From the NCBI GenBank assembly GCA_051892935.1, contig JBJFGS010000025.1:80813-144812 (forward strand): a DNA stretch of 64,000 bases, written 5' to 3'. Source of the DNA: Candidatus Coprovivens sp. GTDB lineage: Bacteria; Bacillota_I; Bacilli_A; RF39; UBA660. A program made the position numbers and the translations under genes. Under the pieces are notes generated by a model, which searched no databases, was not told the DNA's origin, and was given only the letters and a program-made list of their open reading frames with translations. This document shows, piece after piece, positions 19,861 through 63,966 of this stretch. Positions within the stretch are counted from its first letter, which is position 1; every line of letters starts with the position of its first letter.

Positions 19861-20533
19861 TATTAATTATATCATTAAAAACATAACTTGCGATACAAAA
19901 ACCAGCAGCATTAGGCACAAAACTTACAGAACCAGGAGTTCTAGACTGAATCTTCCTAGGTAATTCTTGAGAACACAAAACAGGTAATTTATACTTAATG
20001 CCATTATCTCTCATCATCTTACGAATAACTTTAGCAACAGGATCATTCTGCGTTTTCCATATATTAGTAATCTCTAATTTAGTAGGATCAACTCTATTAC
20101 CAGTACCCATACTACTAATAATTCTTATATTATATTGTAAAGCTTTCTTTATTAATAATAACTTTGTTGACATAGTATCACAACAATCAATAATATAATC
20201 AAACTTAGAATAATCTAAAACGTCAATATTAGCTTCATTTAAAAACATTTCATAAGAATCAACACTTATATCATGATTAATCAATTTAGCTCTTAAAGAA
20301 GCTTCATTTACTTTAGAACAACCTATATTATTAATATTACACAATAATTGTCTATTTAAATTAGATTTACTAAATACATCACCATCTACTATAGTTAATC
20401 TCTTAATCCCCATTCTAACTAAAGCTTCAAAACAAGCCCCACCTACTCCACCAACACCAACAATTAAAATATTACTATTACAAAAAGCATTCAGCTCATC
20501 ATCACTAAAAAGTAATTTACAACGTTCCAACAT
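19838..20533 (-). CDS. tcdA: ThiF/MoeB-fold protein, TcdA/YrvM-like (tRNA t6A dehydratase family)
   Basis: ILIVGVGGVGGACFEALVRMGIKRLTIVDGDVFSKSNLNRQ nucleotide-binding fold. About 230 aa, the YrvM size. Start set at the ATG at 20533 after gggtga. Confidence 0.75.
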   Translation of the reverse strand: MLERCKLLFSDDELNAFCNSNILIVGVGGVGGACFEALVRMGIKRLTIVDGDVFSKSNLNRQLLCNINNIGCSKVNEASLRAKLINHDISVDSYEMFLNEANIDVLDYSKFDYIIDCCDTMSTKLLLIKKALQYNIRIISSMGTGNRVDPTKLEITNIWKTQNDPVAKVIRKMMRDNGIKYKLPVLCSQELPRKIQSRTPGSVSFVPNAAGFCIASYVFNDIINNGSGYHE

Positions 20534-52074: not shown

Positions 52075-53850
52075 CTATTCTTTATTATATTTACTATCCA
52101 AGTATTCTTTTAATTCGATAGCTACATTAGTTGGTAATATTTCCTCTACTTCTTGAAGTGTTGCTTCTCTCATTTTCGCTATACTACCAAATTTTTTTAT
52201 TAATTGTTTCTTTCTAACAGGCCCAATCCCTTCAATATCATCTAAAACACTACTTATACTGCCTTTACTTCTAAGTGTTCTATGATAATTTATAGTGAAT
52301 CTATGTACTTCATCTTGCATTCTTGTCAAATAATGAAATACGTTACTCATTCTATCTATATTAATAACACTTAAATCAGAAGAAATCAAGTCATTAGTTC
52401 TATGTTTATCATTCTTTTTTAAACCAACAACCATTATATTAAGATGTAAAAGTTCTAATATTTCTTTTGCAGCTCTAATTTGATTCTCTCCTCCATCTAC
52501 AATAATCAACTCTGGAAGACTTGTTTTATCAACTAAAGCTCTCTGATACCTTCTATATAATATTTCCTTCATCGTATTATAATCATCATTTACATCAACT
52601 GAAACTTTATATTTACGATATTCATTTTTAGCAGGCTTACCATCAATAAATACTACCATACCAGAAACAGCAAAACTACCAAAAAGATTTGAATTATCAA
52701 AAACATCAATTCTATAAATAGAATCCAAACCTAATATCTTAGCTAATTCATCATTAGCTTTACTAGTCATAACTTCATCTTTTTTTATTTCTTCAAATCT
52801 ATTATTCAAATTAAGCTTAGCATTATCAAAAGCCATCTCTAATAAATCTTTTTTAACACCTTTCTGCGGAATAATAAAGTTAGTATTAACTACAGATTTT
52901 AAATTTTCTATATTTAATGAATCAGGAATTAAAATTTCTTTTGGGATCTCATTTCTACTATAAAATTTAGCAATATAATACTCAATATCATCATTAATAT
53001 CTAAATTAATTGGAAATATTTCATTCTTATGATTTAATAACTTACCATTTCTAATAAATAATATTTCAATAGATAAATAACCATTATCAACAAAATAAGA
53101 AATAACATCTCTATTAACAAAATCATGCAATTCGACTTTTTGTTTATCTAAAACAATATCAATATACTCTAATTCTTTCTTTAAATCCAAAGCCATTTCA
53201 AAGTTTAAATTTTCACTATACTTAGTAATTTTATCCATAATCTTATTTCTAAGTATTTCATCATTACCTCTTAAAAAAGATAGTATTTCATTTTCCATAT
53301 CAACTATTTTATCTTTATCTATTTTATTACTACAATAACCTAAACATTCACCAATATGATAATATAAACATACTTCTTTAGGATTACCTTCGCACTTTTT
53401 TAGAGGATATAATCTATTAAGCAAGTTTACTATTCTTCTAGCAGCATAAGCATTAGGATATGGACCAAATAGTTTTTTTCCATCTTTCTTCCTAATATTT
53501 AGATATCTTGATACTTTAAGTTTAGGATATGGATCACTAATATACTCAATATAAGGATAACTCTTATCATCAGTAAGCATAATATTATACTTAGGATTAA
53601 ATTCCTTAATTAAATTAATTTCTATTATAAATGCTTCAAGTTCAGAAGAAGCTACAATATATTGAAAGTCCTCAATTAAACTAACCATTTTCGCCGTTTT
53701 ACCAGTATGAACCCTATTAAAATAAGAAGAAAGTCTTTTATTCAAATCTTTAGCTTTTCCAACATAAATAATATTCCCATTCTTATCTTTCATTTGATAA
53801 GAACCAGGTTTATGAGGTACTAAAGCTAATTTATCTTTAAATTTCATCAT
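52075..53850 (-). CDS. uvrC: Excinuclease ABC subunit C
   Basis: GIY-YIG PGSYQMKDKNGNIIYVGKAKDLNKRLSSYF; UvrBC-interacting region; C-terminal HhH IEGIGPVRKKQLIKKFGS. Confidence 0.95.
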   Translation of the reverse strand: MMKFKDKLALVPHKPGSYQMKDKNGNIIYVGKAKDLNKRLSSYFNRVHTGKTAKMVSLIEDFQYIVASSELEAFIIEINLIKEFNPKYNIMLTDDKSYPYIEYISDPYPKLKVSRYLNIRKKDGKKLFGPYPNAYAARRIVNLLNRLYPLKKCEGNPKEVCLYYHIGECLGYCSNKIDKDKIVDMENEILSFLRGNDEILRNKIMDKITKYSENLNFEMALDLKKELEYIDIVLDKQKVELHDFVNRDVISYFVDNGYLSIEILFIRNGKLLNHKNEIFPINLDINDDIEYYIAKFYSRNEIPKEILIPDSLNIENLKSVVNTNFIIPQKGVKKDLLEMAFDNAKLNLNNRFEEIKKDEVMTSKANDELAKILGLDSIYRIDVFDNSNLFGSFAVSGMVVFIDGKPAKNEYRKYKVSVDVNDDYNTMKEILYRRYQRALVDKTSLPELIIVDGGENQIRAAKEILELLHLNIMVVGLKKNDKHRTNDLISSDLSVINIDRMSNVFHYLTRMQDEVHRFTINYHRTLRSKGSISSVLDDIEGIGPVRKKQLIKKFGSIAKMREATLQEVEEILPTNVAIELKEYLDSKYNKE

Positions 53851-54310
53851 CTACCTCCTTATTTAACAAATAATTATAAAGAGCTAAACACCCTTCATTA
53901 ATTTCATTATAAGCAGTATCAAAATCTCCACTATACCACGGATCATCTATATCTTTATTACTACCAGTAAATTCCAATAATAAATGAATTTTATTATCAA
54001 CATCAGGTCCAACTATTTGTATAACATCTCTTTTATTTCTCTGTTCCATTACAATAATATAATTATATAAATTATAATCTTCTCTTTTTATTTGAGTAGC
54101 CTTATGACTTTCACAAGTAACTCCCTCACTAACAAGTTTTTGTCTTGCTTGAGGATACATTTCATGACCAAGTTCTTCTATACTAGTAGCTCTTGATGCA
54201 CAAGTAAACATATAACGTTTACTATTCTTATATATAAGATCTTTAAAAATCATTTCAGCCATAGGACTTCTACAAATATTTCCATAGCATACAAACAGAA
54301 TGTTATACAT
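53837..54310 (-). CDS. Low-molecular-weight protein-tyrosine phosphatase
   Basis: ILFVCYGNICRSPMAE (C-X5-R-S P-loop) and the DPWY Asp loop; 157 aa. Confidence 0.9.
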   Translation of the reverse strand: MYNILFVCYGNICRSPMAEMIFKDLIYKNSKRYMFTCASRATSIEELGHEMYPQARQKLVSEGVTCESHKATQIKREDYNLYNYIIVMEQRNKRDVIQIVGPDVDNKIHLLLEFTGSNKDIDDPWYSGDFDTAYNEINEGCLALYNYLLNKEVDDEI

Positions 54311-54361
54311 ACTATCACCTTACAATATTATAACATAAAGAATAATTATTATTTCATATAT

Positions 54362-54577
54362 CTATCTTTTTTTGGCTTTTTTCTTTTCATCAGAAGTGGT
54401 ATAAGAAGTTACGTTACTATGAACCATTTCTGCAAAAAGAGAGTTTGATATTACTTCATTCATATCTTCACCATCCAAAAGCGAATCAACAAATTGTAAT
54501 TCATCATTTTCATCATACCTTTTAACAATTTTCAATCCTTCTTTTAAAGAAATCAACTTTTCTTTTTCATTACTCAT
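54362..54577 (-). CDS. Small protein (71 aa) coupled to the giant ORF
   Basis: Its ATG overlaps the giant ORF's TGA (ATGA). Acidic body with a KKKAKKR tail. Confidence 0.6.
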   Translation of the reverse strand: MSNEKEKLISLKEGLKIVKRYDENDELQFVDSLLDGEDMNEVISNSLFAEMVHSNVTSYTTSDEKKKAKKR

Positions 54578-57500
54578 AATGTAACTCCTCCACTCTTTTT
54601 AAGATTCTCTAATTCTAAAACATACTCTTCCATCTTAATAATAGCATCATTTCTTCTTTTCAAAATCAACTCTAATACTTGATCAGCTTTATCTTTACCT
54701 AAAGAAACGGCATATTTTCTAAATAAATCCTTATAATCATCATCACTTAAAAGTTTAACTTTATTTATTGTATCAGTAATAACAGATAAATCAAGATCTA
54801 TTTCTCCGTTCCTATACCTAGTAAATAATATTTGATAAATAGGAATACGATGATTACCATTAGGAGTAAAAGAATAATCTGCATTCAATGTTCTATCATC
54901 ACTTATAAACCTAAACGATTGTTCTTTGTCAATTCCTCTCAAATTATTTGAACTATCTATAATAAAATTTCCAACATAACAATCAAAATTACATAGTAAA
55001 AAGTCAATAACATATTCTCTTAGCAAAGCAGAAGAATAACAATAATCTAACTCTCCACCTTTATTAACCCAATCCTTAAGTACATCAGAATTATCCTCAC
55101 TTATCTCCACTAATTCTTGTTTAGAAAATCTCAATTTACCCCCAATACTCTCAACTCTTACTGAAGTACCAGGAGATAAAAATTCTTGTAATTTAGAAGC
55201 CGCTTCTTGAATATCAGCTCTAAAAGGTTGTAAAGCATAGTTATTTTTATCTACTGCTGGTTTTAGTAAGAAACTATCATCATCAATATCATATCTATAC
55301 ATAATTCCAGACTCTCCCAAATTAGCAGTTTCAAGAGCTACAATTTCTTCTTTAGACATTCCTCTTAAAACAGTTAAAGTTTTTCTAAAAAGACCAATAC
55401 GAGTCAATTCTTTTTTACAGTCAGGTAAATCAACTATTATTTGACAAACAATGCTTTCCATCTCGTATAAAGATTTACACAAATAATCAAAAGATATTTC
55501 ACTATTACGATACTTATCATTCAAAATAGTTAAACAATAATCTACTTTTTCTTTTATACTAACATTTGGATTATTCTCTTGTATCCCATCAAAGAATATA
55601 GAATACATCAACGAATAATTAGGACTAATTTTAAAATCAGCTTTAGCTTTCTTTAAATCTTCCACTTTCTTAGTATCATAAGCATAAACATCAAATTTAA
55701 TAATTGGAACATCAACTCCAAGAAAATCACTAAAATACTTAGCAGCCCTAATTGTAGCCTCATTTGGTACATCACCAACACAAGCCAAAGCACAAGGAAG
55801 CATACCTTCTCTAAAACCAGCTACTTCATTATAAGAACAATGCTTATAACAACTACACTGATTAAGAGCATTCAAATTTGTAAAAGCATTAATATTAGCA
55901 GTTGGTTCAATCTTATAACCACCATGCTCAACAAATAAATCTCTACCATTCATAAAAAGCATAAAACTCTTAGGTAAACTATTAAACAAATAAACAACAC
56001 CATTATTATCTCTATTATTTATAAACCAAAATCCTTTATCGGAAATACTAGATGTAGATAATGTCGAAGCTCCTTCTAACTTAGTCCATAAAGAAGGATC
56101 ATTAATTAACATCTCCTTAAAACCAGACATATTAGTATCATAAGAATAAATCCTATGGACTAAAAAATTAAACTTTTCAGAATTCATTTCAATAATAGTA
56201 ACACCATAAGGATTATTAGGATCACCCTTATCAATACGTTTACTTTTCAAATCCTCAATATTAGTAAGTCTTCCATTAAATTGATAATTATGTAACAATC
56301 TAATCTTAGCAATAATATTTCTCACTTCATCACAATAATCTAAAACTCCTGCATTGTCATTTATAAGTTTAGTCATTAAATCTTTTAATTCATTGATATT
56401 TTGAGATTCTATAATTCTACTCATTAATGTAATAATAGCTACATCTTTCTTATTGTAAAAACATTCTTTAAATATTTGATTAGCTCTTTCCAAACCATAA
56501 CATTCTATAATATCTTCTCGTAAAGTTTTTAGATTTAAATAATTATTTAATTGGAAATTATTAAAATCTTTTGCTAAAGAAGCGATATCAGCATATCCAA
56601 ATAAAGTAGCTAAAACATTCTTAATTTCAGCAATATTATTCGAATTTAATTTAATCATCCAAAAATCTTGTGTTTTCTTTTCATATTGTTTAAGTTCATC
56701 ATATGTTTTAATATCATACAAATTATTGCCTATAATAACTTTTCTAAGATTAGAAATATCAATTTCACTTAATTCATAATTTGAATTACAAATATCAATT
56801 ATTAACTCTTTATACTTATCAAAATTCCTAAAAGCATAATGAACTCTTTTATCATCATTATCAAACAAATTATAACGACAAACAATATCATAATAACTAC
56901 TAAGTAAATTAGCATTATTAGCTTTTATTTCTTTAGATATCACTGAAACAGCAGGTGTATTATATTTAATAACATCAAGTACAAATTCAAGACCAAATAA
57001 CGGATAAATATATTTAACAACATCATAATTAAAAACAGGATTCTTTTCTAAAGTATTTAATTTACCATTAGATTTTAAAATAAATAAAGCATTCTTAAAA
57101 ACAATTTGTAAATCACTATCAAATATTTCAAGATCAATAAATGGTAAAACTGTTACAATCTTTCTGAAAGTAAAACCATTTTCATTAGTCAAATCACTAT
57201 CGTAAGAATTAATAGCATTTGCAAAAACACTTCTAATAACATTATCATTTTTATCTATTAATCTAAAATCCTTCAAATTACTAAGTAAAAAATCAGCAAC
57301 GAAAAAACAATTATTCTTATTATTAATATCAAAATTTGAAAAATGAATAATCTTCAAAACTTTAGAAACCGATAATAAATGTCTATCAATAGTCGAAAAA
57401 TCATCTATATAAGCAAAAGTACGTTCATTCAAAAATTCCAGAGGAAGTTGAAATAAAATTGAAGGAGCAGTTTTTAAAGCAGCCACAACCATTTCCTCAT

Positions 57501-60500
57501 CTATTTCAATTAAAGAAGAAATTCTAGTTAAATAATAACCATTAATAGACAAAGCCTTTAAAACTAATTCCCTATATCTTTCCATAGTATTAGGAAATAG
57601 AAATATTAAATCAGAATTATAATCAAGAACAGTAAAACATAAATCAAAATCTTTCTTTAAAAAATCAGGTAAATAATTATAAACACAACCATTTTTATAT
57701 TCAACCAGCTTTAAAGCAGTCTCTTTATCATTTATCAAATTAGGTATAAAAGTAAATACAATAGGATATTCTAACAAATGATCTTTTGCATACCTAACAA
57801 TAATATCTAAAGAATGATTCGCATATGCAAAAGTACTTTCATCAAGTTTCATAGCATAATCAAGAATATCAATATCATCTTTAAAAGTATCACTTAAGTA
57901 AAAATAAACGCTTGAAGCGGAATCCTTTTTCATTAGTTTAAATATAATTTCTTTATTATTTAAAATAGAAGGAACATACTTATATAAAGAAGGATAATCA
58001 TCTATAATATTTGTAACACTATTAATAATATCTTGATCATTACAATCAACATATTTAATATAAAACAAAGGATCATCTAAAAAATACTTCTTAGCCATAT
58101 CATATTTTTTTTGAATAAATATTTCCAAATCAGTAAAATTATTAGCAAACCACTCTACTACATATTTTTTATCAGAACAAGAATTAAGTATATCATCTAT
58201 AATCGTTAAAGATTCTTTTTCTTTAGGTAATTCATTCAACCTCAATAAAACAGTAAAGTTTTCTTTACTTGAATAGTCAAAATTATAATACAACGAAGCA
58301 TCAATTCCAAAAGAATTAAGAAATTCCTTAAAAGGTCCATCAATATACCAATTATTTCTAAAAAAAATTGTAAAATCATAAATAAAATCATATTTATTCT
58401 CACTATAAATTTCAGAAAGTATATCCTTAAGTAATAAATATAAAGAATCATCAACTTCATTAATTAAATCTTTTCCTATCTGTAATAAAGATTGTATTCC
58501 TAGATTTTTAAGTATTTCCCTATCAACCTCAACGCCATTTTTTAAAGCAACTGAAACAGTATGTGAAGAAGATTTAAAAGAAAAATTATACCCACTCTTA
58601 AAAGCTAATAAAACATAATCATCATCTACATAGCCATGATAATAATCTAAAACACTAGGATAAAAAGAAACAATTTCCTTTACCACTTCAGAATTTAAAT
58701 ATCGAGCATCAATATAACTAAGTATTAAAGGATTTTCCTTTATAAGTTCAACAACTGAATTAGAACTCATATCATAATAAAATAACTTACTACATAATTC
58801 AGGTTGTTCTCTAGCAATAATCTTTAATAAATTAATATCTCTTCTCTGTTCAACATTTAACAATTTTATAATATCAGGATTTTTTCTAACAAACGAAGCC
58901 AAAGAATGATAATTATTTACAATATCAGAAAAAAAGATAATATATCTAGAGTCAGAATCAATTCTACTTCGTAAATACATTAACTCATCATCTGAAAAAC
59001 TGATTTTCTTAATAAAAGAATTAAAATATTTATTAGTAAGAATCTGTTCTTCAGGAAAATAGCCACCTAATAAAGCTTTTTTCAAAACATCTTCTTCAAT
59101 TCTGTCATAATAATATGATATAAAATCATAAAATCCCATTATAACCATTTTTCTTATAAGAAAAATTTTAGTATCAGTATTTATAGAATAAGAATTAATA
59201 ATTTCACGTATCTTATCAACACTTAAATATTTTAACAATTTAGTAAGTAAAACTTTATTATTTATAGTACTAGAAGACAAATCAACATAATTAAAAAGAA
59301 CATATTCATTTTCATCAATTTCATCAAGAAGTACTTTATCACTAACACCAATAATCTTTTGCATTTTTACAATACTATTCTTATTAAAACCAGTTCTATA
59401 CATTTTTAAAATAATACTAGAACTATCATAAATATAAAGACTAGAATTACTCTCAGATAATTTTACAAATAGATTAACAAGTTCTTGTTCATATTCAATT
59501 TTAATAAATCTACTAATAACTAAAGCATTCATAACAGGATGCTTTTTAAACATTTCAAAATTATATCCTGATTCAAATAAAAAATCGATATCTTCATCAG
59601 AAAAATTATTAATTACATCAAGTATTTCAAATCTATTATTTAAAATGTATTTTCTCATCAATAATGAATTAAAAATCGCCGAAGAACATAAATCCTTTGA
59701 ATCAGGTAAATAACCATTCAATAAACTATAATATAAATCAACTGCTTCCTTACAATCATTCCCATAAAAATGCAAATACTTAATTCCTCTATCATCACCT
59801 TTTTTTAAAAGAAATACAACTGAATCAAGAGATAAATCTGTAAAATCATTAATATATGGAAGAATATCATCAAAAGAAATACCGCTTAAAATAGCTTTTT
59901 CAATAACAGAACGAGTAGGATTATTCTTTAATAAATCCATCAAATAACTAGAATCATACTCAATAAATTTTTCTTTTAATATTGGAATATTCTGAACAAC
60001 TAATGGCAAAGAAATATATTTTTCATATGAAATATCTTTTAAACCTATTTTTTCTAAATCAAAATCACTTAAATACAAATTTTCAGTAGCTAATACATCG
60101 TAATGGCCTTCATTAACAAACTTATATATAATATCTTTAGACAAATCACATTTACCATATTTAGAAATAGCTTCTTCATACATACTATATGTAATATAAT
60201 CCAAATAACTATTAACTAAATTTTTATCGTTTGAATAAAGTAAAGGCAAATACATTCCCTTTTGTACAAACGCCTCAATGAAAACATTTTTATTAGTATT
60301 ACGAGAAAGATTAATAGCAAAATCATCCACTGTAAGACCATTATCAATAAGTTCTAAAGCAACAGGTAAAGAAATAGAAAAGCTACTATAAGAACGATAT
60401 TTATCCCAATCACGAGAAACAACACAATATAAAAAATTAATTTCCTCAGAATTCCTATAATCATCTTTTAACTGATATATACCACTTTTAACAAGTTCTA

Positions 60501-61569
60501 AAACATAATTAAAACAATTAATATCAGTCAATACCGAAGTCAAACCACCTATTAATGAATAATCATTATTTACTACAAAATATCTAGCAAGAGGAAAAGA
60601 ATCTAAAATATTAGTAAAAGAGTTAATTCTTTCTAAAGAAATATTATTATTTTGAATAAAGTTTATAACATCCTCATTAACAGCTTCTTTAGAAGCATAC
60701 ATTAAAGCATCAATTTTACCATCCTGTAAAAGATTTAATAATAAAGGAGAACTTTTTTTATAAGACCCATCATATAAAGAATAATCATAAAAAGAAAAGT
60801 CAGAATAATTAACTAAATCAGCAGAAGGATTAGAAGCTAAAACTAAAGCTTTACTACCTCCTATATCAATAAATCTTTTTACAATATTTTCATCATTCAA
60901 AATTGAAATATCATGATCATTCATATACATAGTAATTATATATTCAAAAAAAGCCTTAAAATCAAAATCACATTTAGATAATTCAATTAATAAATTAGAA
61001 AAATCAGCTTTAAAATTATTAGAATATCTAAAATATTTTCCCAAATATTTATAATTGTTATTGGAAATCATTAAAGCTGCAAGCTTAGGACTAATACTAT
61101 AAGAATGTTCAACTAACAAATCGACTTTATCAGGATAAAGAATATATATATCATATTGAAAACTACCTAAAATCTCAAATTTTTTCAAAATATCATCTAT
61201 AGAAACACCATTATTCAAATAATAATTTAAGTCATTTAAATCAAAAATAGCTCCATGAACATCAGTATATTCCTTATCACGATAAAAGTAATCTAATAAA
61301 GAATAATAAAACTCATCCGAAATGAAAAGTTTAGAATAAAATAAGTTATCAAGCCCATTATCAAAATCTAATTCACTAATAAATTCTTCATCACCAATAT
61401 ATTTATCAACAAATAAGAAATAATCATTATGAATTTTATCTCTAAGAGTATTCAATATATAATCAATATCTCTTTCTAAATAATCAGTATCAATATTATA
61501 TTTTTTAAATATTTCAAGCAAGGAATCTTCCTCTAACAATTTCAAAAATTTAATAACATCTTCGTGCAT
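54574..61569 (-). CDS. Giant repeat protein (2331 aa) with C-terminal kinase-like domain
   Basis: Uninterrupted 6996-nt ORF. TGcTATAAT extended -10 and RBS aggtg upstream. No signal peptide or TM seen. Helical repeats, including DUF4116-like ~26-aa units. C-terminal K/E/D-x4-N/D landmarks. Confidence 0.85.
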   Translation of the reverse strand: MHEDVIKFLKLLEEDSLLEIFKKYNIDTDYLERDIDYILNTLRDKIHNDYFLFVDKYIGDEEFISELDFDNGLDNLFYSKLFISDEFYYSLLDYFYRDKEYTDVHGAIFDLNDLNYYLNNGVSIDDILKKFEILGSFQYDIYILYPDKVDLLVEHSYSISPKLAALMISNNNYKYLGKYFRYSNNFKADFSNLLIELSKCDFDFKAFFEYIITMYMNDHDISILNDENIVKRFIDIGGSKALVLASNPSADLVNYSDFSFYDYSLYDGSYKKSSPLLLNLLQDGKIDALMYASKEAVNEDVINFIQNNNISLERINSFTNILDSFPLARYFVVNNDYSLIGGLTSVLTDINCFNYVLELVKSGIYQLKDDYRNSEEINFLYCVVSRDWDKYRSYSSFSISLPVALELIDNGLTVDDFAINLSRNTNKNVFIEAFVQKGMYLPLLYSNDKNLVNSYLDYITYSMYEEAISKYGKCDLSKDIIYKFVNEGHYDVLATENLYLSDFDLEKIGLKDISYEKYISLPLVVQNIPILKEKFIEYDSSYLMDLLKNNPTRSVIEKAILSGISFDDILPYINDFTDLSLDSVVFLLKKGDDRGIKYLHFYGNDCKEAVDLYYSLLNGYLPDSKDLCSSAIFNSLLMRKYILNNRFEILDVINNFSDEDIDFLFESGYNFEMFKKHPVMNALVISRFIKIEYEQELVNLFVKLSESNSSLYIYDSSSIILKMYRTGFNKNSIVKMQKIIGVSDKVLLDEIDENEYVLFNYVDLSSSTINNKVLLTKLLKYLSVDKIREIINSYSINTDTKIFLIRKMVIMGFYDFISYYYDRIEEDVLKKALLGGYFPEEQILTNKYFNSFIKKISFSDDELMYLRSRIDSDSRYIIFFSDIVNNYHSLASFVRKNPDIIKLLNVEQRRDINLLKIIAREQPELCSKLFYYDMSSNSVVELIKENPLILSYIDARYLNSEVVKEIVSFYPSVLDYYHGYVDDDYVLLAFKSGYNFSFKSSSHTVSVALKNGVEVDREILKNLGIQSLLQIGKDLINEVDDSLYLLLKDILSEIYSENKYDFIYDFTIFFRNNWYIDGPFKEFLNSFGIDASLYYNFDYSSKENFTVLLRLNELPKEKESLTIIDDILNSCSDKKYVVEWFANNFTDLEIFIQKKYDMAKKYFLDDPLFYIKYVDCNDQDIINSVTNIIDDYPSLYKYVPSILNNKEIIFKLMKKDSASSVYFYLSDTFKDDIDILDYAMKLDESTFAYANHSLDIIVRYAKDHLLEYPIVFTFIPNLINDKETALKLVEYKNGCVYNYLPDFLKKDFDLCFTVLDYNSDLIFLFPNTMERYRELVLKALSINGYYLTRISSLIEIDEEMVVAALKTAPSILFQLPLEFLNERTFAYIDDFSTIDRHLLSVSKVLKIIHFSNFDINNKNNCFFVADFLLSNLKDFRLIDKNDNVIRSVFANAINSYDSDLTNENGFTFRKIVTVLPFIDLEIFDSDLQIVFKNALFILKSNGKLNTLEKNPVFNYDVVKYIYPLFGLEFVLDVIKYNTPAVSVISKEIKANNANLLSSYYDIVCRYNLFDNDDKRVHYAFRNFDKYKELIIDICNSNYELSEIDISNLRKVIIGNNLYDIKTYDELKQYEKKTQDFWMIKLNSNNIAEIKNVLATLFGYADIASLAKDFNNFQLNNYLNLKTLREDIIECYGLERANQIFKECFYNKKDVAIITLMSRIIESQNINELKDLMTKLINDNAGVLDYCDEVRNIIAKIRLLHNYQFNGRLTNIEDLKSKRIDKGDPNNPYGVTIIEMNSEKFNFLVHRIYSYDTNMSGFKEMLINDPSLWTKLEGASTLSTSSISDKGFWFINNRDNNGVVYLFNSLPKSFMLFMNGRDLFVEHGGYKIEPTANINAFTNLNALNQCSCYKHCSYNEVAGFREGMLPCALACVGDVPNEATIRAAKYFSDFLGVDVPIIKFDVYAYDTKKVEDLKKAKADFKISPNYSLMYSIFFDGIQENNPNVSIKEKVDYCLTILNDKYRNSEISFDYLCKSLYEMESIVCQIIVDLPDCKKELTRIGLFRKTLTVLRGMSKEEIVALETANLGESGIMYRYDIDDDSFLLKPAVDKNNYALQPFRADIQEAASKLQEFLSPGTSVRVESIGGKLRFSKQELVEISEDNSDVLKDWVNKGGELDYCYSSALLREYVIDFLLCNFDCYVGNFIIDSSNNLRGIDKEQSFRFISDDRTLNADYSFTPNGNHRIPIYQILFTRYRNGEIDLDLSVITDTINKVKLLSDDDYKDLFRKYAVSLGKDKADQVLELILKRRNDAIIKMEEYVLELENLKKSGGVTL

Positions 61570-62748: not shown

Positions 62749-63966
62749 ATGGCAAAAACTATAAGAATCGCTGGAAAAAATTTTAACGCAAATTTCTTTT
62801 ATACTTACATGAGAAAAAACTTTGGTGAATCATTTGCACACAGTAGTCTTTCATTTGAAAAAGAATTCGAAGAAAGTAAAAAACTAGCTCAAAGGCTAAG
62901 TGAATTCATGTCTCAAAGTAATTGTGCTTATGCTACTAAATTAGAAAATGGTTCTAAAGAAGATTTAGAATTATTAAAAACAAGATACAGTGAAATAGCT
63001 ACAGTATTAGAAAAAATATATTCTGTACCAAAAGAAAGATATATCCTAGACGAAGATGAAGAAGATTATTCACTATGTATCGATGATTTCATACCATATT
63101 TTAAAGGAGCTGTAAGACCTTATCGTAATAAATACGAAATAGAACAAGCTCGCCTAGCAGGCAAATTAACTGATGCTCCATACGAAAATGAATCTCTAAT
63201 CGATAAAGTAAAAGAATTAGCAGACCTAGTAAGTTTAAAAGTTGCTGCTGATAAAAAAGCATATAATTTAAAAAAAGGAAATAACGAAGCATATGCTTAC
63301 GCTTTAGGTTTAAAATCAATAGGTATTCCGGAAATAATTGAAATAAATGCAAAAGTAAATAAAAATTCAGGAATTCATACTGGATTCAAAACAACAGACA
63401 ACGACATAATAAACGCTCCATTCAAGACATGTCCTAAAGAATTAGTTCCAATAAAAATGCAAGAGCTACTTCATAATTATAATTATGTTTGGGCGCAAGG
63501 CATCCCTCCATTTACTGAAGGTGTCGATGACGAAAAACAAAAAATTGCTCATTTAAGAGCTGTTTGTGATAGAGAAGCAAAATTCCATATTGCATTCGAA
63601 AGAATACATCCATTTGAAGATGGTAATGGTCGTACAGGAAGAATAATTCTAAACGCTCATTTAGTCGCAAACGAACTAGCTCCTGTTTTAATTACTCCAG
63701 AAATGCGTGAATTCTATATAGAATGTATAGATACAGACAACTATCAAGCTTTAAGTCAGCATATAATGTCAATATCAAGTGTATGCTTAACAGAAATGGT
63801 TTCACAATATCGTAGAACAAAAGGTATAGATCCAGATGAATTAAGAATTTCCGATGTTCAACAAAAAGGTCATCATACAGCAGTCAAAGTATACATACCT
63901 GAAACACAACAAGAAAAAACTGCTCAAGGCGACGAGGATGTTAAAATATATCGAATAAAAAGATAA
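62749..63966 (+). CDS. Fic-domain protein
   Basis: Canonical Fic motif HPFEDGNGRTGR (H-x-F-x-[DE]-G-N-G-R-x-x-R) near the C-terminus of a 405-aa ORF. The N-terminal ~280 aa were not recognised. Confidence 0.9.
   Translation: MAKTIRIAGKNFNANFFYTYMRKNFGESFAHSSLSFEKEFEESKKLAQRLSEFMSQSNCAYATKLENGSKEDLELLKTRYSEIATVLEKIYSVPKERYILDEDEEDYSLCIDDFIPYFKGAVRPYRNKYEIEQARLAGKLTDAPYENESLIDKVKELADLVSLKVAADKKAYNLKKGNNEAYAYALGLKSIGIPEIIEINAKVNKNSGIHTGFKTTDNDIINAPFKTCPKELVPIKMQELLHNYNYVWAQGIPPFTEGVDDEKQKIAHLRAVCDREAKFHIAFERIHPFEDGNGRTGRIILNAHLVANELAPVLITPEMREFYIECIDTDNYQALSQHIMSISSVCLTEMVSQYRRTKGIDPDELRISDVQQKGHHTAVKVYIPETQQEKTAQGDEDVKIYRIKR

Follow-up and report, generated by a model that had tools for sequence, protein, structure and literature searches.

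Which function is carried out by a giant gene of a gut bacterium whose product has been given no more than the name of a repeat domain? Within the 64,000-nucleotide stretch of Candidatus Coprovivens sp. DNA analysed here (contig JBJFGS010000025.1, positions 80,813 to 144,812; hereafter the window), an open reading frame (ORF) of 2331 amino acids (aa) occupies positions 54574..61569 of the minus strand. It is identical (100%) to the NCBI entry 'MAG: DUF4116 domain-containing protein [Candidatus Coprovivens sp.]' (P0202; MAG, metagenome-assembled genome), the only label being "DUF4116 domain-containing protein". An earlier note, made from the sequence without database searches, had pointed to protein-kinase-like landmarks near the C-terminus. 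We propose that residues ~2078-2325 (54595..55338; all parts of the giant ORF named below lie on the minus strand) constitute an atypical kinase domain that is catalytically competent and belongs to the PI3/4-kinase / HipA / CtkA branch of the protein-kinase-like fold. As the best full explanation of the data, this reading is given a probability of roughly 0.6.

When the ORF was re-read, the peptides quoted in that note, the positions of its landmarks (G2085, G2088, K2103, E2122, D2196, N2201 and D2214) and the spacings of 19, 74, 5 and 13 residues from K2103 via E2122, D2196 and N2201 to D2214 proved to be exact. The ORF contains a single match to the pattern K-x18-E-x72..75-D-x4-N-x12-D, at K2103, compared with 0.036 matches per composition-preserving shuffle. 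The idea of a kinase had not been taken from annotation, as single-sequence searches of Pfam, NCBIfam and PDB find none. Neither as a single sequence nor as a profile did the domain obtain a significant match in Pfam, NCBIfam, PHROGs, PADLOC or PDB sequences, and it is covered by no model of the first four. The note's remark that no described bacterial family with this architecture was known to its author agrees with this at the level of curated families.

Conservation was counted over 219 homologous domain copies from ~200 proteins. The glycine-rich loop G2085-E-S-G2088 (55306..55317) precedes the first long strand of the structural model described below, and among non-gap copies its first glycine (G2085) is retained in 174 of 179 and its second (G2088) in 158 of 183. 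The lysine predicted to bind ATP, K2103 (55261..55263), is part of an F-K-P motif on the second N-lobe strand and is kept in 211 of 212 non-gap copies. An alphaC-like helix follows at residues 2116-2131 (55177..55224; helix 57-72 of the model), which carries R2117, Q2121 (175/219) and E2122. The catalytic loop D2189-F-L-L-C-N2194-F-D2196-C-Y-V-G-N2201 (54967..55005) was assigned by conservation and by alignment to PI4K2A; here D2189 is invariant (219/219), and D2196 and N2201 are found in 215 and 210 of the 219 copies, respectively. In place of DFG the family has the signature D2214-K-E-Q (54919..54930), in which D2214 is the predicted metal-binding aspartate (D2214 and K2215 217/219 each, E2216 212/219, Q2217 197/219). 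K2103, D2196, N2201 and D2214, kept in 96-100% of the copies, behave as catalytic residues, whereas E2122 does not. The note was also right that the HRD and DFG tripeptides are replaced. It had left the choice between an atypical kinase and a pseudokinase; the former stands, and the latter is less likely because the lysine, the catalytic aspartate, the asparagine and the metal-binding aspartate are all present and conserved. Judged from these residues, an active enzyme is the more likely state of the domain.

As to the fold, we modelled the domain with AlphaFold2 on a domain-only alignment (A2). The model is confident (predicted local distance difference test, pLDDT, 85.8; predicted template modelling score, pTM, 0.86) and bilobal, its N-lobe consisting of strands that surround a single long helix and its C-lobe of helices (185-266). 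Its top structural matches are almost all kinases: PI4K type II-alpha (scores of 14.1 and 13.5), Helicobacter pylori CtkA (13.4), CotH (11.6), actin-fragmin kinase (11.5), MavQ (11.4), HipA (11.3), PI3K-alpha and Fam20 (11.2 each), with RIO, Bud32 and eukaryotic-type kinases at 7.5-9.2. The bilobal kinase fold expected from the landmarks is therefore borne out by the model, and there is little doubt that the C-terminal ~250 residues adopt the fold of an atypical kinase with kinship to PI4K-II, CtkA and HipA. The PKA-like spacing stressed in the earlier note is correct in its numbers, but it reflects the shared fold and not membership of the PKA-type kinases. Features of eukaryotic protein kinases (HRD, DFG, APE, a match to Pfam Pkinase) are absent from the domain.

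Sequence bridges to the same branch were found in relatives of the domain. Among 35 diverse family members, weak Pfam matches were obtained to PF00454 in nine (best E-value 3e-4) and to HipA_C in seven, and one of 33 large members matched PF00454 with an E-value of 4.4e-5. The window domain itself does not reach the PF00454 gathering threshold, the matches of its relatives being sub-threshold as well, nor does it reach that of HipA_C, for which there are weak matches in relatives only. A profile of the 35 sequences aligns the catalytic loop 'vvDyllcnfDsharNfiid' to PI4K2A, with an overall E-value of only 1.7; in this alignment the D-x-x-x-x-N catalytic loop and the preceding conserved D...N segment of the PI3/PI4-kinase family are both present.

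Two features had escaped the earlier note, namely a small ORF overlapping the stop codon of the giant gene (see below) and a second enzyme-like domain upstream of the kinase-like one. Residues 1690-2062 were modelled apart from the kinase-like domain (alignment A4, pLDDT 85.8), and in this model an alpha/beta domain at ~1777-1959 (55693..56241) sits between helical segments. The description of the protein as more than 2000 aa of helical repeats thus needs correction: DUF4116 repeats are indeed detected by Pfam, though only at ~941-977 and ~1200-1380, but the protein is not all-helical. Invariant residues of the upstream domain are H1805(-R1806), S1838-T-S1840, N1914-E1915, R1920 and C1930. Foldseek found no significant match of the model in PDB; its weak matches repeatedly include CteC entries and Tpt1, an enzyme of the ADP-ribosyltransferase (ART) superfamily, and on this structural basis we tentatively suggest an ART-like fold for residues 1777-1959. 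CteC, the ubiquitin-threonine ADP-ribosyltransferase of Chromobacterium violaceum (PDB 8ux2), shares ~8% identity with the domain in a Foldseek match that is not significant, and the domain has 'Y-N-E' where ExE or QxE is usual in ARTs. Pfam ART models gave no match to it, a local hidden Markov model (HMM) search did not link it to the ART-bearing relatives described below, and a database search with A4 returned only four fragments.

A helical linker (residues 1960-2077, 55339..55692; helices 272-372 of model ma6fa58149498) joins the two alpha/beta domains. At the other end, the N-terminal ~940 residues (58750..61569) contain no recognisable domain by Pfam, and are followed by the DUF4116 repeat zone at residues ~941-1380 (57430..58749; PF13475, E-value 7.9e-20, five stretches). 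No internal repeats came to light in the N-terminal part by a simple iterative search. Orthologues of the protein over its full length have 2235-2342 aa. Across 11 full-length orthologues, identity is 51-72% in the kinase-like domain (2078-2325) and 49-86% in the ART-like domain (1777-1959), compared with 21-51% in residues 1-1380; the values against orthologues are 24-50% for the N-terminal part and 18-64% for the linker. Because of this far higher identity, the two enzyme-like domains are, by sequence comparison, the constrained end of the giant protein. All 10 proteins homologous to residues 1-1689 extend over the full length and share one architecture, by which a polymorphic toxin with variable C-termini is ruled out. 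A prophage or an integrative and conjugative element is excluded as well, the neighbours being housekeeping genes in conserved order (see below). The giant gene is thus a stable, lineage-specific one, neither a prophage gene nor a polymorphic toxin with swapped ends. No transmembrane helix is present, the highest 19-residue Kyte-Doolittle mean being 1.36, as the note had stated; its claim that a signal peptide is lacking was judged by eye only.

The kinase-like domain itself is, by sequence searches, not rare. With residues 1990-2331 as the query, 55 relatives were retrieved by a word-indexed search, all of them lacking Pfam domains, and the closest loci in the genome collection belong to gut MAGs of Bacilli and Clostridia. 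The full extent of the family became apparent in an HMM search with A2 over 1.84 billion cluster representatives (50% identity), which yielded 1141 representatives at E <= 1e-3 and 697 at E <= 1e-10. The domain is widespread in Bacillota and phages, with at least 106 viral contigs of IMG/VR carrying it. The usual phage form is a protein of ~1100-1200 aa composed of a MuF domain, the kinase-like domain, Rho_N and an unknown C-terminal part, whose gene adjoins portal and terminase genes. Pfam partners in the 33 large members are Rho_N (5), Phage_min_cap2, Phage_Mu_F and ADPrib_exo_Tox (4 each) and NUDIX (2). Tandem double copies of the kinase-like domain were seen in many large members (P0107, P0118, P0120, P0127, P0134-P0136 and others).

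Among GenBank phages, the domain occurs in 12 mycobacteriophage records. McProf gp54 (L125, 2588-6145), annotated as 'minor capsid and ADP-ribosyltransferase fusion protein', consists of VG15 (7-203), an unannotated kinase-like copy (~471-679) and an ART (1007-1176), and Onyinye gp16 (L124, 3461-7483), annotated as 'ADP-ribosyltransferase', likewise contains an unannotated kinase-like copy; in both proteins this copy is N-terminal to a bona fide ADPrib_exo_Tox domain. A short ORF directly follows each of the two genes. The reverse order is seen in a chromosomal family of ~594 aa (P0049; L041, 4663-6447), in which R/STS/ExE motifs precede the kinase-like domain, and whose gene adjoins a pyrimidine-dimer glycosylase and a metallo-beta-lactamase-fold gene. 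The N-terminal domain of this family (alignment A5) has no Pfam or PDB sequence match; hhalign found it unrelated to the upstream domain of the giant ORF (A4), and neither profile, A4 or A5, gave a sequence match to solved ARTs. From these sequences, the pairing of a kinase-like with an ART-type domain recurs with apparently unrelated ART sequences and in both orders.

The small ORF mentioned above encodes 71 aa (54362..54577, minus strand), its ATG overlapping the TGA of the giant ORF in an ATGA arrangement. A homologous ORF of 64-73 aa overlaps the stop codon of the giant gene in 8 of 8 genomes examined; it was not found beside other kinase-domain proteins at the loci fetched. The 71-aa ORF is likely to be a translationally coupled partner of the giant ORF. 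A large enzyme-bearing protein with a coupled small partner is an arrangement typical of toxin-immunity or enzyme-regulator pairs, and by analogy the same may apply here.

As to the mechanism, the glycine-rich loop G2085-G2088 and K2103 would hold ATP, D2196 would act as the catalytic base, and N2201 and D2214 would bind Mg2+ or Mn2+. The kinase would thereby form the C-terminal half of a two-domain enzymatic end (ART-like domain, helical linker, kinase), with the ~1,700 poorly conserved residues before it probably serving as a scaffold or for targeting. By virtue of its gene arrangement only, the product of the 71-aa ORF would most simply be a stoichiometric regulator or inhibitor of the enzymatic end. 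The substrate would presumably be a Ser/Thr residue of a protein, since CtkA and HipA, to which the domain is structurally closest among bacterial proteins, phosphorylate proteins, and since it travels together with protein-modifying ADP-ribosyltransferases in phage head proteins. The fold, the near invariance of the catalytic set, the distribution of the family and its domain neighbours are what the data show; use of ATP, the class of substrate and the role of the small ORF are what we infer from these comparisons.

The window domain differs from each of the known systems that it resembles. PI4K-II-alpha (PDB 4pla, 4hnd; PF00454) shares ~14% identity with it and has I-D-N-G where the window domain has D-K-E-Q; its palmitoylation motif CCPCC is absent from the giant ORF, and on general grounds a bacterial protein of the cytoplasm would hardly be expected to act on phosphoinositides. 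H. pylori CtkA (JHP940, PDB 3akj), to which there is no detectable sequence similarity, is a single-domain protein of ~36 kDa delivered by a type IV secretion system, whereas the window kinase ends a 2331-aa protein without a secretion signal. Compared with HipA/HipT (Pfam HipA_C), the window protein lacks the HipA N-terminal subdomain and an upstream helix-turn-helix antitoxin, and it belongs to a clade in which a histidine of the catalytic loop is replaced by tyrosine or phenylalanine (see below). The MuF/minor-capsid polymorphic toxins and polyvalent proteins are related through homologues of the kinase-like domain in MuF/minor-capsid proteins beside portal and terminase genes, often together with an ART. 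Such architectures are known from head proteins for which injection together with the DNA has been proposed (Jamet 2017, PMC5576092; Iyer 2017, PMC5512222). By Pfam, the window ORF has no Phage_Mu_F or minor-capsid domain, and it lies outside a prophage, unlike these relatives. The kinase of polyvalent proteins is a minimal eukaryotic-protein-kinase-like domain without a C-lobe, known from Verrucomicrobia, Chlamydia and Bacteroidetes (Iyer 2017, PMC5512222); identity with it is ruled out, as our model keeps a helical C-lobe and the other features and taxa differ. The survey of MuF toxins mentions no kinase (Jamet 2017, PMC5576092), and in open-access papers we found no description of the kinase-like family.

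Several points weigh against a catalytically competent kinase that acts on proteins. The fold assignment depends on a predicted structure built from 17 sequences, and the window domain itself has no significant match to any kinase model. The alphaC glutamate, which the earlier note had listed as a candidate landmark, is poorly conserved (145/219 copies, 66%; the four nearest fragments have Q, K, K and A), and the histidine found at +2 of the catalytic aspartate in 137 of 219 copies is tyrosine or phenylalanine in this clade. The top structural match is a lipid kinase, so that the protein substrate is predicted only. Finally, the giant gene is located among housekeeping genes in conserved order, and it carries no secretion or phage-packaging domain; for these reasons, what applies to the phage relatives as effectors may not hold here. 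A chance arrangement of landmarks in a D/N/K/E-rich protein of low GC content, with no kinase fold behind it, would agree with the abundance of D, N and K and with the lack of a kinase match in single-sequence searches. It has become a negligible option in view of the low expectation in shuffled sequences (0.036), the near invariance of the residues over 219 copies and a confident model whose top structural matches are almost all kinases. If the fold is accepted, the domain could still phosphorylate lipids or small molecules rather than proteins, as do PI4K-II-alpha, MavQ and the kinases of aminoglycosides and methylthioribose; its first structural match might suggest this. We consider this improbable: the ORF lacks the CCPCC motif and has no membrane-binding element or transmembrane helix, and the recurrent partners of the domain are protein-modifying ARTs and phage head proteins. 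Kinase folds may also carry out other chemistry, as exemplified by SelO, which performs AMPylation, and SidJ, which performs glutamylation and inactivates SidE-family ARTs. Accordingly, the domain might catalyse such a reaction or be a nucleotide-binding regulator that controls the neighbouring ART-like domain. Its recurrence, in either order, beside two or more mutually unrelated domains of ART type, the poorly conserved alphaC glutamate and the D-K-E-Q signature in place of DFG would all be in line with this, but none of the residues of the canonical set for phosphotransfer (Lys, catalytic Asp, Asn, metal Asp) is missing, and they hardly vary, and many members, such as those with MuF-kinase-Rho_N or tandem kinase-kinase architecture, have no recognisable ART, which makes this option rather improbable, too.

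The arrangement with the 71-aa ORF raises the question if the giant protein is the toxic half of a toxin-antitoxin or toxin-immunity pair, in which the HipA-like kinase and/or the ART-like domain would arrest growth and the small protein would neutralise this activity. The similarity to HipA in structure and sequence, the ATGA-type overlap and the conservation of the small ORF across all eight genomes speak for such a pair, as does the fact that in polymorphic toxin systems the toxin gene is regularly followed by an immunity gene (PMC5576092). On the other hand, neither a HipB/HipS-like partner (the small ORF lay outside the domain-library scans) nor the HipA N-terminal subdomain was found. 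Moreover, the giant gene is stable, syntenic and chromosomal, with a fixed architecture and no variable C-termini, and 2331 aa are very large for a toxin of toxin-antitoxin type. We therefore regard this possibility as unlikely, though worth keeping in mind. More speculative, and doubtful in our view, is an extension of the atypical-kinase reading, according to which the kinase-like domain and an ADP-ribosyltransferase would make up a coupled two-enzyme unit that phages inject with their DNA. Such a unit might mark one host target sequentially, by phosphorylation and then ADP-ribosylation on or beside the phosphate, or the kinase fold might act as a switch of the ART; Candidatus Coprovivens and its relatives would have taken it into a giant chromosomal protein that is held in check by a dedicated 71-aa inhibitor. 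If true, this would represent a new class of self-controlled dual protein-modifying enzyme.

Returning to the atypical kinase, the domain is best seen as a family of its own, new and uncurated, that belongs to a known fold superfamily and occurs here in an unusual architecture. New atypical-kinase families are not in themselves surprising, and known ones (CotH, Fam20, SelO, SidJ, HopBF1, HipA) often have unexpected chemistry and targets. The family, comprising more than 1,100 clusters at 50% identity, has gone unannotated in proteins labelled 'DUF4116', 'minor capsid protein' or 'ADP-ribosyltransferase'. Should the domain prove active, a kinase would join the effectors proposed to be injected from the phage head, and the function of a giant lineage-specific protein in a common, uncultured gut bacterium would become approachable for the first time. 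Members in cultivable mycobacteriophages (McProf gp54, Onyinye gp16) are open to direct testing.

Directly downstream of the giant ORF is a gene of the low-molecular-weight phosphotyrosine-phosphatase family (53837..54310, minus strand; Pfam LMWPc, E-value 3.7e-28), followed by UvrC, Rnf-like genes and QueA. No terminator-like site was found between the giant ORF and the phosphatase gene, which is preceded by a TGnTATAAT-like element (54327-54335) and an AGGTGA ribosome-binding site. The order giant ORF, phosphatase and UvrC is repeated in two other gut MAGs (L003 and L005). On the other side of the giant ORF are genes for UPF0029, a nitroreductase and a Fic protein. The latter, a Fic/DOC-domain protein and thus a member of a protein-modifying enzyme family, is encoded on the plus strand (62749..63966), 1.2 kb beyond the start of the giant ORF. 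Between positions 20000 and 62000 of the window nearly all long ORFs are on the minus strand, with a GC skew of about -0.3 to -0.5 and a GC content of 22-31%; strand bias and skew fit a single replication arm of a Bacillota chromosome with low GC content.

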